Shown here: one piece after another, positions 301-50,223 of the stretch
Layout: each line of letters starts with the position of its first letter
Numbering within the stretch: position 1 is the first letter of the stretch
Sequence record: NC_049822.1
DNA length: 51,739 nt
Origin: Escherichia phage vB_EcoS_G29-2
Reading direction: 5' to 3' (one strand)
Made by a program: the position numbers and the translations under genes
Notes under the pieces: generated by a model
Databases searched by the model: none
The model's input: only the letters and a program-made list of their open reading frames with translations
What the model was told of the DNA's origin: nothing

Positions 301-456
301 GATTTTTGTATGTATATATATGGGGTAGCGGTAATCCTCCGTCAACCAGGTCAACAAGGTCACTTTTAGCTGTTAAACCAATAACTTAACCAGTGCATTT
401 TGTTATCTCTAAACGCGCCACATGCCAAAAATCGTTATTAAAACACAAAATATATT

Positions 457-486
457 GACATGTAGGAAAGGAAAGGCAATAATGCA
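457..486 (+). promoter_or_regulatory. sigma70-like promoter candidate (TTGACA -17/18- AATAAT)
   Basis: TTGACA at 457-462 and A/T-rich -10 near 480-486, upstream of first gene. Confidence 0.45.
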
Positions 487-1764: not shown

Positions 1765-1817
1765 ATCACATAGGGCGGCACGGCGTCGCCCACTAAAACC
1801 AATCAGGAGAAAGCACC

Positions 1818-2765
1818 ATGTTAAAACTTGCTGACATTAAATTCCCGATCACCTTCGAATCTCGCGGCGTTGGTCATTTCATGTTTACCGACGAGAAGAC
1901 ATGCACTAAGTTTAACGAATACGGAAGTCCAAACGCTTCAACAATGGAGATTGAACACTTCATTGAAGCGCACAATAAACACTACAACTCACTTCGCGAC
2001 TACGGCTATGCAATGCCAGGATACACCTGTTTTCACTACAAGCCATATAAAGGACAGGTGTTACCAATGCGCGCACAGGACATTGCGAGCGCTGCGACTT
2101 ATGCGCGGGCAATTCACGCGCCAGAGAATGCAGAGCCACTAGTAAAAATGCACGCCTTCGACTATAAAAAATTGTGGTGCTTAAGCGTGGACAATATCAA
2201 GTATCCGATCACTTTCCGCTCCGCTGGTAATTCAACGATTCGCTACACATCACGCGACAATGGCGTTTATGGTGATGGTCAGAAATCAGAGTTGAAAGTT
2301 GATTTCTTTGTCAATGGTCACAACAAATTCAATCCACACAACGAAAAGGATAAAGTGTATTACGTGGAAGACATTACAAAACACTTGTTTGGAGAAACAC
2401 CATTCGGCGGCGGGAAGACGTCTATTGCTCAGGCTATAGATAACGTTGCGCGACGTATTGGTGAGCAGATTCACAGTCAAACAATTAAGGCGTCCGGAGG
2501 CTGGCGTATTGATAAGAGCGTCATTGCCTGTCAAGAAATCGTAACGCAGGGCGCGATTGAAGACATGCCGCTTGGCGCTTCAATCATCGGCATCAAAGAC
2601 GACAACGGCGACTGGCAGGATGTTTCATTCCCTGTTAAGCAGATCGAAGTACACGACGACCTGATTTGCCTCCTGGCTCATCATGGCAGCTATAGAGACA
2701 AAGCCTTTGCCGCAGAGCTTAACATCAAGCGCGGAACGATGGTTAAGTGGAAGGTCAAAGCGTAA
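1818..2765 (+). CDS. hypothetical protein with internal tandem repeat
   Basis: 315-aa ORF, RBS CAGGAGA; internal duplication ADIKFPITFESRG / DNIKYPITFRSAG. Confidence 0.7.
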   Translation: MLKLADIKFPITFESRGVGHFMFTDEKTCTKFNEYGSPNASTMEIEHFIEAHNKHYNSLRDYGYAMPGYTCFHYKPYKGQVLPMRAQDIASAATYARAIHAPENAEPLVKMHAFDYKKLWCLSVDNIKYPITFRSAGNSTIRYTSRDNGVYGDGQKSELKVDFFVNGHNKFNPHNEKDKVYYVEDITKHLFGETPFGGGKTSIAQAIDNVARRIGEQIHSQTIKASGGWRIDKSVIACQEIVTQGAIEDMPLGASIIGIKDDNGDWQDVSFPVKQIEVHDDLICLLAHHGSYRDKAFAAELNIKRGTMVKWKVKA

Positions 2766-2808
2766 ATAGCACGAATTGTTAAAACTCAAATGTGGGGCCA
2801 GGTATAAT
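2764..2808 (+). promoter_or_regulatory. conserved motif promoter (variant AATAGCACGAATTGTTAAAAC, -10 TATAAT inside GGCC stem)
   Basis: motif then 17-18 bp then TATAAT. Confidence 0.55.
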
Positions 2809-2838
2809 GGCCTCACTTTCAACGAAGGAGATAAAACG

Positions 2839-3069
2839 ATGTATATTAACAAGAAGATGAAATGCGTTTCCGTTAACTATGGTTGTGCTGGAATGTTCAA
2901 GCCTGGCGAAATCTATACGGCGCAAAAGCTGAAATCATCAACCGGATCCTTTTACGTGAGCAATAGTAAAGGGCATCGCATGTTCCTGAACGGTGGCGAA
3001 GGAACTAAGGTTATGGCGCACGCTATGGTAATTGCTGAATTTGAGGAAGTGAAAGATGGAAACAAATAA
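2839..3069 (+). CDS. hypothetical protein
   Basis: RBS GAAGGAGA 7 nt upstream of ATG 2839; in frame with track ORF 2776-3069. Confidence 0.5.
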   Translation: MYINKKMKCVSVNYGCAGMFKPGEIYTAQKLKSSTGSFYVSNSKGHRMFLNGGEGTKVMAHAMVIAEFEEVKDGNK

Positions 3070-3277
3070 GCGCGTTAAACACAAGTTTATTGATAATCAT
3101 GGTGATGCACTTGAGGTATACAAGTTTGGTGATCGCGTGTTTATTGATGGCACGTTTGAAGGTGGGCGCAGGCCGGATTTTAGGTCGATACTCACCATTA
3201 ACCAGGTGCGCAAGCTGGCGGATAAGTTAAATGATCTGGCAGATGAAATCGAATACAAGCAAATCCACTTTAATTGA
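3056..3277 (+). CDS. hypothetical protein
   Basis: 73-aa ORF overlapping upstream stop. Confidence 0.5.
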   Translation: METNKRVKHKFIDNHGDALEVYKFGDRVFIDGTFEGGRRPDFRSILTINQVRKLADKLNDLADEIEYKQIHFN

Positions 3278-3288
3278 TAGGTTTGATA

Positions 3289-3909
3289 ATGAAAAAATAC
3301 GAATTTGAACTTTGGGGCAGCAAATACCATTTTTCCACGAGCAAGCCGATTGTTATTGTTGATCTGGACGGCACTTTATCCGATGGAACGCATCGCTTGC
3401 ACCTGCTTCCGACAGAAGATTTACACCTTACAGAAAGCTGGTCTGAGTTCAATAAGGCGGCTTTTGGCGATTCGCCGATTAAGAGCACGGTTGCAGTGGT
3501 TAACGGATTATGGATGTCAGGATTTGCTATTGTTATCCTGACCGGACGTAGCGACGAAGTGATGGCGGACACCTTCAAATGGCTTAATGAAAATGGCGTC
3601 AAGTACGACGCATTAATCATGCGCCGCAAGGAAGACAACCGCAAAGACACAATCATCAAAGAAGAAGTCTTACGCGCTATCGGACTGGAAAACATTGTGT
3701 GCGCTTTTGATGATTCGCCGAACGTGGTTAAGCACTTCCGCAGTCTGGGGATCACAACCTATCAGGTCACGGAATACGACAAGCCACATAATCACATCCA
3801 ATCGCACGGCGTGGATGAATTGAAGCCAAAAATCGAATGCGAAGGCGAGCACTGTTTTAGTGTGGTTGATGGTAAATGTTTGCGTTGCGGCGTGGAGGGT
3901 TTGAAATGA
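3289..3909 (+). CDS. HAD-superfamily phosphatase (Pnk 3-prime-phosphatase-like), C-terminal Cys cluster
   Basis: motif IVIVDLDGTLSD (DxDGT) near N-terminus; C-terminal CEGEHC...CLRCG. Confidence 0.65.
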   Translation: MKKYEFELWGSKYHFSTSKPIVIVDLDGTLSDGTHRLHLLPTEDLHLTESWSEFNKAAFGDSPIKSTVAVVNGLWMSGFAIVILTGRSDEVMADTFKWLNENGVKYDALIMRRKEDNRKDTIIKEEVLRAIGLENIVCAFDDSPNVVKHFRSLGITTYQVTEYDKPHNHIQSHGVDELKPKIECEGEHCFSVVDGKCLRCGVEGLK

Positions 3910-4695: not shown

Positions 4696-4833
4696 ATGAA
4701 GATGCGAAACTTCGAAAAAATCGTAACCAAAAAGAAGCGCTACAGCTATGACGAGCACCGCGAGATGAATCAACGCTATCGCAAGAAGCCACAGCGCCCA
4801 GGTAAACATTCAAGCAGACATGGAGAAAACTAA
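4696..4833 (+). CDS. small basic protein (45 aa)
   Basis: not in ORF track (<60 aa); RBS AGGAG 6 nt upstream; fills gap before kinase gene. Confidence 0.3.
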   Translation: MKMRNFEKIVTKKKRYSYDEHREMNQRYRKKPQRPGKHSSRHGEN

Positions 4834-4834
4834 T

Positions 4835-5425
4835 ATGAAGCGCGACATTATCATCCTTAACGGACCGCCAGGAGTTGGCAAGGATACGCTTGCGGCATAC
4901 TTAACGGGCCATCGTTACGCAGCCGTTAAAGCGTCGTTTAAACAGCCTATGTTTGATATTGCGTTTTCCATGCTTGGCGTTTACCGATATGACGAGTTCA
5001 TTGATCTGTATAACGACCGCGAGCAGAAAGAAAAGCCTCAAGCAATCTTGCAAGGCAAGTCTCCTCGCCAGTTCATGATCTGGATTAGCGAAGAAGTTAT
5101 GAAGCCAGCTTTTGGCGAGCAATATTTCGGAAATCGCATGGTTGAGCAAGTACACGAGATGTACAGAGATTTGGCTGTTGTAATTAGTGATGGCGGATTC
5201 CCTGAAGAAATAAAGCCGCTCGTTAAGGCAGGCCATGAAGTTCACATTTGCCGACTGCATCGCGAAGGCTTCACGTTTGATGGCGATTCACGAAACTATA
5301 TTGACCTGAACGGATACCATCACCGAGTAAAACATTACGACTTCACAATGATTGATGGCGATCCAGAAAAGACTGTTGACGAGATCATCAAAACGGTCCA
5401 GTGGAAACACATTAAGATCAAATAG
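4835..5425 (+). CDS. P-loop nucleotide kinase (dNMP kinase-like)
   Basis: Walker A GPPGVGKDT; resembles phage deoxynucleoside monophosphate kinases; stop in motif copy at 5421. Confidence 0.65.
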   Translation: MKRDIIILNGPPGVGKDTLAAYLTGHRYAAVKASFKQPMFDIAFSMLGVYRYDEFIDLYNDREQKEKPQAILQGKSPRQFMIWISEEVMKPAFGEQYFGNRMVEQVHEMYRDLAVVISDGGFPEEIKPLVKAGHEVHICRLHREGFTFDGDSRNYIDLNGYHHRVKHYDFTMIDGDPEKTVDEIIKTVQWKHIKIK

Positions 5426-5466
5426 CACGAATTGCTAAAAGCGGGGCGCAATGCCTCGCTATAATG
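5421..5466 (+). promoter_or_regulatory. conserved motif promoter (variant, -10 TATAAT)
   Basis: AATAGCACGAATTGCTAAAAG then 18 bp then TATAAT. Confidence 0.5.
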
Positions 5467-15244: not shown

Positions 15245-15266
15245 GTTTAACAAAAAATGCTATCAT
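15245..15266 (-). promoter_or_regulatory. motif copy in inverted orientation between head genes (function unclear)
   Basis: TTAACAAAAAATGCTAT on + strand; lacks the usual 19-bp spacing to a -10. Confidence 0.3.
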
Positions 15267-42066: not shown

Positions 42067-42107
42067 CACTTTTTGTTAAAAAGCCCGGCCCTGTGTCGGG
42101 CATAATT
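42062..42107 (+). promoter_or_regulatory. conserved motif promoter (hairpin GCCCG/CGGGC, -10 CATAAT)
   Basis: motif then 19 bp then ATAATT. Confidence 0.55.
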
Positions 42108-42648: not shown

Positions 42649-43764
42649 ATGAAGCAAATCAAAATCACAGATGAACAATTTATCAATGAGCGCAAGCAGG
42701 GAAAGACATATAAGCAGATAGCTAATGAGTATGGTATGAACGTTCGCAGCATTGAGCGACGCGCAGCGCGACTTGCAAAGCAAGGTAAAGTTACAACCAT
42801 CGGATCACCTGGCTTTGGCGTTACTGGAGAATCAAAGCTAATTGATAAAGATGGCAATGTGGTTATGACATGGATTAAGACAAGCAAGGACCGCGAGCAG
42901 TTAGAAGCATTAATGCAGGCCGCTATGGATGCATTTAGCGAAGAAGTTCCGCGACTTGATCCGCAACCAGAATCACAAAAGGATTATAGCGAGACGTTAT
43001 CACTGTATCCGATCTTTGACATGCACTTGGGCGCAATGGCGCATAAGCATGAATGCGGAGAGAATTGGGATACAGCAACAGCAGAGCGCGTAATGAATAA
43101 TTTCATTGATTATTCTATCCAGTGCGCGCCGGATAGCGAAAAAGCTGTTTTGCTGATTGGTGGCGATATGCTTCACAGTGACGGACTTGAAGCGGTTACA
43201 CCTGCAAGCGGTCACGTATTGGATCAAGATAGTCGATACGCAAAACTTGTTTATGTTGCCATCCGGTCAGTGCGTCGAGCAATCACAAAGCTGTTATCAA
43301 AACATAAAAACGTAGAGATTCAGATAATTGAAGGCAACCACGACCAAAGCGGCATGATCTGGTTGCGCGCAGCAATGGCGGCAGCATATGAGAATGAGCC
43401 GCGAGTGCATGTTGATGTGTCTCCGCGAGTGGTTCATCACACACAATATGGCAAAACATTCCTGGCATACCATCATGGGCACACTATCCGCAAGCCTGAA
43501 ACATTGCTCATGATGTGTGCGGCAGACTGGCGCGAAGACTTCGGAAATTCAAAAATGATGTATGCTCACGTAGGGCACTGGCATCATCAGACAGTAACTG
43601 AAACAAGCCTGGGCATTGTTGAAGTGCATAGCACTATGGCGGCAAAAGATGCATATGCGGCGCGCGGTGGATGGCGTTCTCGACGCCGTGCGGCTGTTAT
43701 TGTTTACGATAAAGAATACGGAGAGGTAGGGCGATTTATGCATTATCCAGAAATGGCTTATTGA
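42649..43764 (+). CDS. calcineurin-like metallophosphoesterase with N-terminal HTH domain
   Basis: motifs GGDMLHSDG, GNHDQ, GHWHH; N-terminal YKQIANEYGMNVRSIERRAARL; RBS AAGGAG. Confidence 0.65.
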   Translation: MKQIKITDEQFINERKQGKTYKQIANEYGMNVRSIERRAARLAKQGKVTTIGSPGFGVTGESKLIDKDGNVVMTWIKTSKDREQLEALMQAAMDAFSEEVPRLDPQPESQKDYSETLSLYPIFDMHLGAMAHKHECGENWDTATAERVMNNFIDYSIQCAPDSEKAVLLIGGDMLHSDGLEAVTPASGHVLDQDSRYAKLVYVAIRSVRRAITKLLSKHKNVEIQIIEGNHDQSGMIWLRAAMAAAYENEPRVHVDVSPRVVHHTQYGKTFLAYHHGHTIRKPETLLMMCAADWREDFGNSKMMYAHVGHWHHQTVTETSLGIVEVHSTMAAKDAYAARGGWRSRRRAAVIVYDKEYGEVGRFMHYPEMAY

Positions 43765-43807
43765 ACTTTTAATCATTAAAATATAAATATAAATCATAAA
43801 TTTAATT

Positions 43808-43838
43808 GGGCGTGGCATTTTGCTTCGCCCTTTTTTTA
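43808..43838 (+). terminator. rho-independent terminator before lysis cassette
   Basis: GGGCG-loop-CGCCC + TTTTTTTATT. Confidence 0.65.
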
Positions 43839-43910
43839 TTCCTTTTTGTGCGTTCAATGGTTAGGATACAATCAATTAATTGTTGACTTTTATCTACAGG
43901 AGATCTAATC

Positions 43911-44126
43911 ATGAAAGATTTTTTAAACGCTGCAACTTCCGGCACTGGCGGAGCGTCAATCACTGGCGCGGTAACTGGTCAAACAACTATTGCAATAGCC
44001 AGCTTCGTTTTGATGGCTGCATTTGGTATGTGGGGCGCTTATCTTCGCTGGCGTGATAGTAAGGCGCTACGTGACGCGCTTGAATGCGGTGATATTAAGA
44101 AAGCTATTGAGATCAGAGGTAAATAA
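43911..44126 (+). CDS. holin
   Basis: 71 aa, single [22 protein letters not shown], charged C-terminus, directly upstream of endolysin. Confidence 0.7.
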
Positions 44127-44614
44127 TGAGTATAAAACAAAGAGTGACCGCTGCGGCTTTTGGCGTTGCTCTTGCCCTTACTTCTCCGCTACTGGAGGAA
44201 ATAGAAGGAGTAAAACATAAGCCGTACAAAGATATTGCTGGGGTATGGACGGTTTGCGCCGGAATAACTGGCCCTGACGTAATACAAGGCAAAACGTACA
44301 CACAAAGAGAGTGCGATGCACTACTGGCGAAGCATATCAAGATCGCAAAGGATGAAGTTGATAAGCGTGTAAAGGTTGACATTCCTGATACAATGCGCGC
44401 AGCAATGTATTCATTCACATACAATGCTGGAACTGGAGCTTTTAGAAATTCAACCATGCTTAAGCTGATTAATAACGGTCGTTATATGGAAGCGTGCGAT
44501 CAGTTATGGATATGGACAAAATACACCAATCCAAAAACAGGAAAGAAAGAAACGTCTAAAGGACTGCGCAACCGCCGCGCGGTGGAATTTAAATATTGCA
44601 TTAAGGATCTGTAA
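44126..44614 (+). CDS. SAR endolysin (lysozyme, E-8-D-5-T catalytic triad)
   Basis: weakly hydrophobic N-terminal signal-anchor [15 protein letters not shown] followed by E-x8-D-x5-T. Confidence 0.75.
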
Positions 44615-45282: not shown

Positions 45283-45328
45283 AAATATACCCGATACGAG
45301 ATCGGGAGTTTTAACAAAAAGTGCTATT
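45283..45328 (-). promoter_or_regulatory. conserved motif promoter (hairpin CCCGAT/ATCGGG, -10 ATATTT)
   Basis: minus-strand motif then 19 bp. Confidence 0.5.
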
Positions 45329-49671: not shown

Positions 49672-49953
49672 CTAATTAATGCCAACAACGTTAAAACTTA
49701 CAGCTTTTGTTGCGCTAAACACATACGCTTCAACAGCCTCACCAAATACACGAATTTTTCCCTGGCCGTACTGCGCATTCATATTGCGCCAAACCGTCCT
49801 GTTAGAACAGAACGCGCTACCAGTCTTGATAAGATTATCCATCTCTTTCCTTAGATCATGATAATCAAGCCAGAATCTATAAGCGCGTTGTTTAATGAGT
49901 TGTGCCTTGATTGTTTCAGTTGAGTTTTTAAAATCGCTGTTTGTGTAGGCCAT
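49672..49953 (-). CDS. hypothetical protein
   Basis: RBS GGAGG; TAATG coupling with upstream gene. Confidence 0.5.
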   Translation of the reverse strand: MAYTNSDFKNSTETIKAQLIKQRAYRFWLDYHDLRKEMDNLIKTGSAFCSNRTVWRNMNAQYGQGKIRVFGEAVEAYVFSATKAVSFNVVGIN

Positions 49954-50147
49954 TACACAACCTCCATAAAAGTATTGAATCCACGCAGTTTGAAAGCATT
50001 GCCATGTTTAACAACGTTCCATGTCAGGCCGGAGTGATACGCAACCATATCCTCAAGATCAATGGTGATGATAGCGCCTTTCTTAAAGATTCCTTTCTCG
50101 TGAGTGGTGTCACGCTGTACAACTTTAACATCAACTTGATTTTCCAT
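49953..50147 (-). CDS. hypothetical protein
   Basis: RBS GAGGA and conserved leader downstream of motif promoter 50178-50223. Confidence 0.5.
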   Translation of the reverse strand: MENQVDVKVVQRDTTHEKGIFKKGAIITIDLEDMVAYHSGLTWNVVKHGNAFKLRGFNTFMEVV

Positions 50148-50177
50148 CTTTAAATCCTCGTTCGTTGTCGATGGATG

Positions 50178-50223
50178 TAATATACCATTCAGGCGCATAC
50201 CGTTTTTAACAAAAAGTGCTATT
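50178..50223 (-). promoter_or_regulatory. conserved motif promoter (-10 ATATTA)
   Basis: motif then 18-19 bp then ATATTA; followed by conserved leader. Confidence 0.5.

Follow-up and report, generated by a model that had tools for sequence, protein, structure and literature searches.

gp05 of the T1-like Escherichia phage vB_EcoS_G29-2 is a modular accessory protein encoded between two promoter-like repeats

Results and discussion

Identity and coding evidence of gp05

The window analyzed here spans the whole genome (51,739 bp) of Escherichia phage vB_EcoS_G29-2 (NC_049822.1), a T1-like siphovirus (Drexlerviridae, Tempevirinae) whose closest relatives are Hanrivervirus and Warwickvirus, and the subject is gp05 (H1N86_gp05), a plus-strand gene at 1818-2765. 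The open reading frame (ORF) runs from the ATG at 1818 to the stop codon at 2763-2765 and encodes 315 amino acids (aa), exactly as a first-pass annotation made from the DNA letters alone had described it; its translation is 100% identical to NCBI entry H1N86_gp05, which is labelled 'hypothetical protein'. A Shine-Dalgarno sequence, AGGAG, is located at 1805-1809 (+ strand), 8 nt 5' of the ATG, and is conserved in the relatives compared. gp05 is a real accessory gene of T1-like (Drexlerviridae) phages, and its structural and evolutionary description, given below, is held with high confidence. While the sequence and its family were already public (PHROG 7116, function-unknown), no published description was found of the architecture of gp05, its module subtypes, copy-number variation or mosaic alleles, or its bracketing by promoters. 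The protein is predicted to be soluble, with no membrane segment, and has a pI of 7.7 with 38 acidic versus 39 basic residues (pI of the individual domains, 5.45-9.26). An acidic DNA mimic of the Ocr or ArdA type was considered and rejected on this charge.

Domain architecture and predicted structure

The two similar peptides quoted in the first-pass annotation, which had placed them about 120 aa apart, begin at aa 1 and aa 122 of gp05, an offset of 121 aa. A Smith-Waterman alignment of aa 1-122 with aa 123-315 scored 77, and this score was reached by none of 2000 shuffled controls (mean 27.2, standard deviation 4.3, maximum 54). Alignment by blastp gave 32% identity between the two copies, N1 and N2, over 53 aa (E = 6e-8). 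A hidden Markov model (HMM) of the module, built from 19 distant relatives only and excluding gp05 itself, matched gp05 at aa 1-68 (E 6.7e-18) and aa 122-185 (E 1.1e-24), and the independent PHROG 7116 profile aligned the same part of itself to each copy (E 2.9e-11 and 4.3e-23). The similarity is therefore significant far beyond chance, and the repeated unit is an entire domain of ~65 aa, extending beyond the ~20 aa first recognized and followed by an unrelated third domain.

Structure prediction with AlphaFold2 also bore out the description of gp05 as a tandem-domain protein, with N1 and N2 modelled as folded domains of the same topology. An earlier run on 25 close homologs was unusable (predicted local distance difference test, pLDDT, of 39) and was replaced by a model based on an alignment of 42 diverse family members, with a mean pLDDT of 74.9. 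This model contains three confident domains joined by low-confidence linkers, and because the predicted template modelling score (pTM) is only 0.37 despite the confident domains, no fixed arrangement of the domains relative to one another is predicted.

The N1 module (aa 1-70; 1818-2027, + strand) is of subtype B, carries the motif 'HNxHY..DYxYxMPG', corresponds to PHROG 7116 positions 1-56 and is predicted to fold as four short strands followed by one helix (pLDDT 76-94 over aa 1-60). Linker 1 (aa 71-120; 2028-2177, +; pLDDT 32-56) is present in G29-2 as a rare long variant, which explains most of the excess in length over the common forms of 293-302 aa; a tract of six A residues (2166-2171, +) lies directly 5' of the codon for Trp120 (2175-2177) at the N1/N2 boundary. 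The N2 module (aa 121-190; 2178-2387, +) is of subtype A, with the motif 'HNxxNPxN..YYV', matches PHROG 7116 positions 1-68 and is modelled at a pLDDT of 91-98. In the N-module, conservation is seen in the first strand, (Y/F)PITF, and in a polar HN..NPxN motif at and past the end of the helix; N1 retains the HN, but 'HNKHYNSLRDYGYAMPGY' replaces NPxN. Linker 2 (aa 191-239; 2388-2534, +; pLDDT 38-54) is predicted, at low confidence, to form a helix at aa 202-220. Mildly basic pI values (8.1-9.3) characterize N2 and the two linkers.

The C domain (aa 240-315; 2535-2762, +) is modelled as an all-beta small barrel of seven strands (pLDDT 80-97) that appears SH3-like, a resemblance at the level of the predicted fold only. 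Its conserved motifs are IEDMPxGA, RIEVHDD and ExNIKRGT, which contain two invariant glutamates, one nearly invariant glutamate and one invariant proline. No relationship was detected between the N-module and the C domain (hhalign probability 0.3%), nor between the C domain and the 61-aa protein encoded upstream of gp05.

Distribution, variants and genomic slot of the gp05 family

When 1.84 billion representative proteins were searched with a profile, only 49 relatives were found, all of them unannotated and confined to T1-like phages, and searches for new fusions with domain profiles in a set of 5.8 billion proteins returned only unannotated proteins of T1-like phages. Homologs include AZS32503.1 of T1, gp06 of TLS, gp30 of SECphi27 and bas06_0069 of Bas06. 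A tblastn search located the N2-C unit in 231 phage records, T1-like in every case and including 3 Klebsiella phages, and N1 in 148, compared with ~840 records (395 of them Klebsiella phages) that encode a related large terminase. The gp05 family is accessory, and most Klebsiella phages within the phage family lack it.

gp05 belongs to PHROG 7116 (E 2.5e-67, aa 121-314 against profile positions 1-173), with a second stretch of similarity covering N1. Members of this PHROG share the N-module, the C domain and the genomic slot of gp05; however, the profile is only 173 aa long, corresponding to one N-module plus the C domain, and gp05 adds an N-terminal subtype-B module and a linker. PHROG 10425 represents the C domain alone. 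One N-module plus C, at ~160-190 aa, is the commonest form in the family, and a protein of this kind (~175 aa, as in T1 and TLS) is the ancestral form. Two N-modules occur in family members P0138, P0140, P0145 and P0147 and in every Hanrivervirus/Warwickvirus-type protein, and three in P0033. The C domain stands alone (~80 aa) in P0146, P0157 and P0159 and is found behind unrelated heads in P0137, P0155, P0156 and P0161, and the N-module is joined to unrelated tails in P0158 and P0164. The tail of P0164 had looked MazG-like by eye, a candidate that was dropped as it found no support in Pfam or PDB and matched only function-unknown PHROGs. A further homolog of 375 aa, P0028 of Shigella phage 2019SD1 (NC_049820.1, ~43323-44203), was left out of the alignments; it comes from an 'UNVERIFIED_ASMBLY' record, its N2-C region is duplicated and frame-scrambled, and it is probably an assembly artefact.

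The gene occupies a conserved slot after the 61-aa gene (PHROG 3623) and 5' of a gene for a HAD/PNKP-type phosphatase, within a run of small plus-strand genes leading to the terminase. This slot is kept in distant relatives, even where the C-terminal part of the protein is replaced. The shared transcription direction with the downstream packaging and structural genes might suggest a virion structural or assembly protein; however, gp05 is surrounded by small non-structural ORFs at a point 6 kb 5' of the small terminase, it is an accessory and deletable gene, and no structural PHROG category or Pfam match was found for it, so that a role in the virion is highly improbable.

Origin of the two modules

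In a neighbour-joining tree of 43 modules (~70 columns, unbootstrapped), all N1 copies grouped with the lone modules of P0122, P0148 and P0164, in which the subtype-B motifs are likewise present, and the N2 copies grouped with the mainstream subtype A, where the extra module of P0033 is N2-like. N1 and N2 are ~24-32% identical to each other, compared with ~85% for orthologous copies. Because this identity is low relative to that of orthologs and the subtypes cluster apart, gp05 appears to combine two old paralogous module types rather than the products of a recent duplication within the gene, a reading held at moderate confidence because the tree has no bootstrap support. The first-pass annotation was thus right that gp05 contains two genuine copies, but in the module tree these are not each other's nearest relatives, and the part of its claim that had the protein built by an internal duplication calls for correction.

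A recent tandem duplication within the Hanrivervirus/Warwickvirus lineage, as that annotation had implied, would fit the presence of both modules in one protein in the same order and the 'L' that N2 keeps at the position of the family's N-terminal 'ML', and the N2-like third module of P0033 indicates that duplication or insertion within the gene does occur. However, the wide gap between paralogous and orthologous identity, together with the subtype-B motifs of N1 and its clustering with P0122, P0148 and P0164 and not with N2, makes such an origin of the N1/N2 pair unlikely.

Natural variants, mosaic alleles and selection

The annotation of phage damhaus lists two genes here, gp55 and gp56, in place of one. 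The DNA alignment reveals a single TGG-to-TAG change at Trp120 (damhaus 1819-1833), with a possible GTG restart four codons past the TAG, and the split falls exactly at the N1/N2 boundary. Because one substitution accounts for it, the split is derived, and the possibility that the two-gene form of damhaus represents an ancestral, unfused state was rejected. A natural deletion of almost the entire gene is present in the 43-kb metagenomic contig ERR11564784_14673, where a 46-aa ORF (P0163, at 2501-2641) joins 19 aa from the start of the 61-aa upstream gene to the last 27 aa of a gp05 homolog; this deletion is represented by one assembled contig.

Across 117 close homologs, the N1 sequences fall into a single cluster, as do those of N2 (mean identity 85-87%). 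Linker 2 occurs as two allelic types, with clusters of 82 and 35 sequences, and the C domain likewise falls into two types. All four combinations of linker 2 and C-domain types are present (52/25/22/11), which indicates recombination within the gene. When G29-2 was compared with three relatives, DNA identity was 94-97% in the flanking genes, versus 54-77% in linker 1, 60-64% in linker 2 and down to 60% in the C domain.

Pairwise ratios of nonsynonymous to synonymous substitution rates (dN/dS) were 0.04-0.49 across all segments and 0.23-0.29 for the whole gene; individually, they were 0.15-0.39 for N1, 0.13-0.32 for N2 and 0.21-0.46 for the C domain, with both damhaus halves included. All domains of gp05 are under purifying selection, and the low ratio in each segment indicates that all three are functional and constrained. 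The gene-wide dS of 0.44-0.84 is far higher than the flanks imply, which indicates that the alleles are old and have been exchanged between genomes.

Promoter-like repeats bracketing gp05

Direct repeats were previously reported for TLS and T1, and the reannotation of TLS lists 21 sites for a 21-nt repeat of this kind, aaATAGCACnnnTTGnTAAAA, leaving its function open between a stoperator, an enhancer and an UP element (PMC11447400). The G29-2 genome contains 21 matches to the Drexlerviridae direct repeat ATAGCACnnnTTGnTAAAA, compared with 0.22 expected. They start at 1255, 1719, 2766, 4064, 5422, 6767, 10988, 38525, 41043 and 42063 on the plus strand and at 15263, 19023, 29690, 38054, 45327, 47496, 48172, 49570, 50222, 50728 and 51604 on the minus strand, mainly in the non-structural blocks of both genome arms. 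In 18 of the 21 copies a -10-like hexamer (consensus GgtAtAaT) lies 18-19 nt past the repeat, and it is followed by a conserved leader, CATCgAAACGA..GAGGA. The -10-like hexamer at fixed spacing, with the conserved leader behind it, argues from sequence that the repeats are promoters of non-structural genes.

Two copies bracket gp05. The upstream copy (1719-1737, +), of the 19-21-nt type ATAGCACnnnTTGnTAAAA, stands directly after the stop codon of the 61-aa gene and 81 nt before the gp05 ATG, and its putative -10 element, CATAAT (1757-1762, +), follows 19 nt past the repeat as part of a candidate gp05 promoter. The downstream copy (2766-2784, +) starts 1 nt after the gp05 stop codon and would, with TATAAT (2803-2808, +) as its -10 element, serve as the promoter of the next gene. 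Six of seven other phages have the upstream copy 55-81 nt before the ATG of the homolog; the exception is the P0033 phage, with its nearest upstream copy at 478 nt. The downstream copy abuts or overlaps the stop codon in SECphi27, KarlJaspers, damhaus and the P0033, P0138 and P0158 phages, and it lies 145 nt past the stop codon of the homolog in T1. This arrangement suggests that gp05 is a monocistronic unit with a promoter of its own, presumably read by host RNA polymerase. The early position assigned to gp05 in the first-pass annotation remains plausible, as the gene has a promoter-type repeat of the kind found mainly in non-structural blocks.

The flanking repeats may also offer homology for cassette exchange. 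Promoter-stem-loop cassettes (PeSLs), attributed to Arbiol et al. 2010, reportedly mediate modular gene shuffling in T4-type phages, and the gp05 locus is alike in having a repeated promoter-type element around single accessory genes and variable content at a conserved slot; however, the sequence and the phage family are different, and recombination at the repeats would here be a matter of inference.

Within the predicted 5' untranslated region (UTR) of gp05, RNA folding places a GC-rich hairpin at 1773-1791 (+), with a 7-bp stem (GGGCGGC/GTCGCCC) and a 5-nt loop. The hairpin is conserved in G29-2, damhaus, SECphi27 and KarlJaspers, where substitutions are found in the loop only, and it occurs as a single copy in the G29-2 genome; most other repeat-type promoters have a shorter leader without a hairpin. 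The UTR as a whole is not unusually structured (z = -0.84), and only this local hairpin is conserved.

Other promoter features were noted elsewhere in the genome. Many of the spacers between repeat and -10 element, for example at 1274-1298, 5441-5465, 42082-42106 and 45283-45308 (the last on the minus strand), contain short inverted repeats at the same position but of differing sequence (CCAGG..CCTGG, GCGGGGC..GCCTCGC, CCCGG..CGGGC and CCCGA..TCGGG), and this looks like a conserved hairpin or palindrome beside the -10 box with compensatory changes. A near-consensus sigma-70 promoter at 455-483 (+), TTGACA-17-AATAAT (11/12), lies just 5' of the first left-arm gene (DUF7174, 520-1005) and is unlike the repeat-type promoters.

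Searches for function and candidate roles of gp05

gp05 had no Pfam match at E <= 1, and no match recurred among the 42 family members. No match to gp05 or its relatives was found in NCBIfam or PADLOC-DB, and none among PDB sequences, either by phmmer or with domain profiles; Foldseek comparison of the gp05 model with the PDB returned nothing significant, and BFVD returned only uncharacterised members of the gp05 family. The earlier statement that gp05 has no recognisable enzymatic motif is thus in agreement with negative searches of Pfam, NCBIfam, PADLOC, PDB sequences and PDB folds. The same was true of individual nuclease folds: HNH, beta-beta-alpha-Me and PD-(D/E)xK nucleases gave no Pfam or PDB match to gp05, and in the model HN..NPxN is placed at a helix end after four strands rather than in a beta-beta-alpha finger, with an all-beta C domain.

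An enzyme with an undescribed active site is nevertheless one alternative, with degradation of host DNA by T1 and TLS, or a role tied to the nearby RNA-repair-type phosphatase and kinase genes, as candidate activities. Strongly conserved polar motifs, namely HN..NPxN at the end of the N-module helix and the three glutamates of the C domain, would suit such a protein, as would the kept position 5' of the HAD/PNKP gene, and the early gene products that degrade host DNA are stated to be unidentified in the TLS study (PMC11447400). However, no nuclease, hydrolase or transferase family was found by sequence or fold, the domains are only 65-75 aa long, N1 has lost NPxN yet stays under purifying selection, and many family members, whose basic life cycle is presumably the same, lack the gene. 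Altogether, an enzymatic function is improbable.

The best fold matches are domain I of EF-P, the C-terminal domain of uL2, Pelota and eIF5A. These nucleic-acid- or ribosome-associated small barrels, together with the mildly basic character of N2 and both linkers, would fit a nucleic-acid-binding regulator of phage or host gene expression, its SH3/KOW-like barrel and beta-rich modules contacting RNA or DNA; this alternative is also unlikely, though somewhat less so than an enzyme. Known small SH3-like barrels (EF-P domain I, the uL2 C-terminal domain, the N-domains of eIF5A and Pelota, FeoA and SH3b) were hit at a sequence identity of only 4-17%, with no Pfam match, and the C-domain motifs IEDMP, EVHDD and NIKRGT are not those of these families. 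KOW, S1 and OB domains had no Pfam match in the 42 members beyond single hits at chance level (POT1, 0.064; Dna2 rift barrel, 0.098).

Known anti-defence families (anti-CRISPR, Gad, Tad, Had, Apyc and others) showed no match through Pfam, PDB or BFVD, and literature searches on Hanrivervirus and anti-defence, G29-2, SECphi27 escape mutants, T1 and TLS yielded no mention of the gp05 gene. The gp05 homolog of SECphi27, gp30, is not among the defence triggers reported in the literature checked; the trigger of Mokosh is a different protein of 128 aa, and that of RAZR is Gp77. Gp54 of phage Bas11 (PF25180), a beta-barrel protein of 66 aa, directly activates CapRel(SJ46) (PMC11578894). It resembles gp05 in being a non-essential accessory beta-barrel protein of Drexlerviridae with no primary function assigned; however, it has no detectable relationship to the gp05 C domain (hhalign probability 0.2%) and is encoded in the other genome arm, and gp05 had no Pfam match to PF25180. 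G29-2 has a Gp54 homolog of its own, in the ORF at 49953-50198 on the minus strand (PF25180, E 3e-37), the true start of which is likely Met18.

Small domains on flexible linkers, variable modules with a conserved barrel, the lack of a catalytic signature, and an accessory, mosaic gene in a non-structural block together suggest a binding or adaptor protein. On this view, gp05 would be a soluble 'beads-on-a-string' protein in which the family-specific alpha/beta modules N1 and N2 and the C barrel are connected by flexible, fast-changing linkers, and it would be transcribed from its own repeat-type promoter by host RNA polymerase alongside other non-structural genes. It would act by binding, with the C barrel as a common interaction or effector surface and the N-modules as recognition units whose number and subtype may set valency or specificity. 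The target would most likely be a host component, with gp05 serving host takeover or counter-defence early or midway in infection, and, with the flanking repeats, phages could readily swap the unit by recombination, entire or in part.

This account of binding and host interaction is tentative, although it is favored here over the alternatives above, and counter-defence specifically is a good deal more doubtful. The first-pass annotation had named gp05 a candidate host-takeover or anti-defence factor, and such a role is plausible on circumstantial grounds, given an accessory and mosaic gene that at least one contig can do without, and a product that does not look enzymatic. A more specific proposal is a long shot of similar standing to counter-defence, namely that the N-module represents an undescribed fold family, a recognition unit variable in subtype and copy number (1-3) that is coupled to an SH3-like barrel, and that such proteins form a new class of counter-defence or takeover effectors whose cassettes are exchanged via the promoter repeats. 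If so, module number, subtype and the two C alleles would map to different host targets or defence systems.

Several points weigh against these interpretations. The HN..NPxN of the N-module and the three C-domain glutamates could form a novel active or metal site. The fold searches covered the domains together, so a fold match to the N-module may have been missed. The promoter role of the repeats is read from sequence, in a setting where the TLS authors left that role open (PMC11447400), and the neighbour-joining tree of modules was built from ~70 columns and has no bootstrap support. Finally, the crude pairwise dN/dS values show no positive selection, and an arms-race reading is therefore not directly supported.

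T1-like phages rank with the most frequently isolated coliphages, and defence systems are routinely tested with them (SECphi27, BASEL Bas01-13); nonetheless, nearly every left-arm gene they carry lacks an assigned function. A 'hypothetical protein' is now defined by its domain boundaries, subtypes, copy-number and fusion variants, two C alleles, and a natural split and deletion, and these natural variants are ready constructs and controls for experiments. If gp05 is a counter-defence or takeover factor, varying the count of N-modules would be an unusual means of adjusting specificity; otherwise, it is an ordinary orphan accessory gene.

Neighbouring genes and related records

The longest ORF of the next gene (2776-3069, +) begins with a TTG at 2776 and would overlap the repeat-type promoter at 2766-2808; the real start is probably the ATG at 2839 (MYINKK...), as annotated in damhaus and KarlJaspers. 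The gene that follows (3056-3277, +; 73 aa) is variable, with 3101-3300 having essentially no counterpart in KarlJaspers and flanks that are 92-97% identical, and it is another replaceable cassette. Further downstream, 3274-3909 (+) encodes a HAD/PNKP-type phosphatase domain only, and 4820-5425 (+), 0.9 kb beyond it, encodes a P-loop protein of 201 aa, such that T4-Pnk-like functions appear to be split over the two genes. No RNA ligase was noticed near them in passing.

Among the sequence records encountered, ~20 labelled 'Campylobacter phage' (e.g., MG065680.1, MG065636.1 and MG065643.1) are ~50-kb T1-like genomes close to these coliphages, and 'Streptococcus phage MBBL140' (OR786094.1) is likewise a ~50-kb T1-like genome; the Campylobacter and Streptococcus host labels of these records look doubtful.

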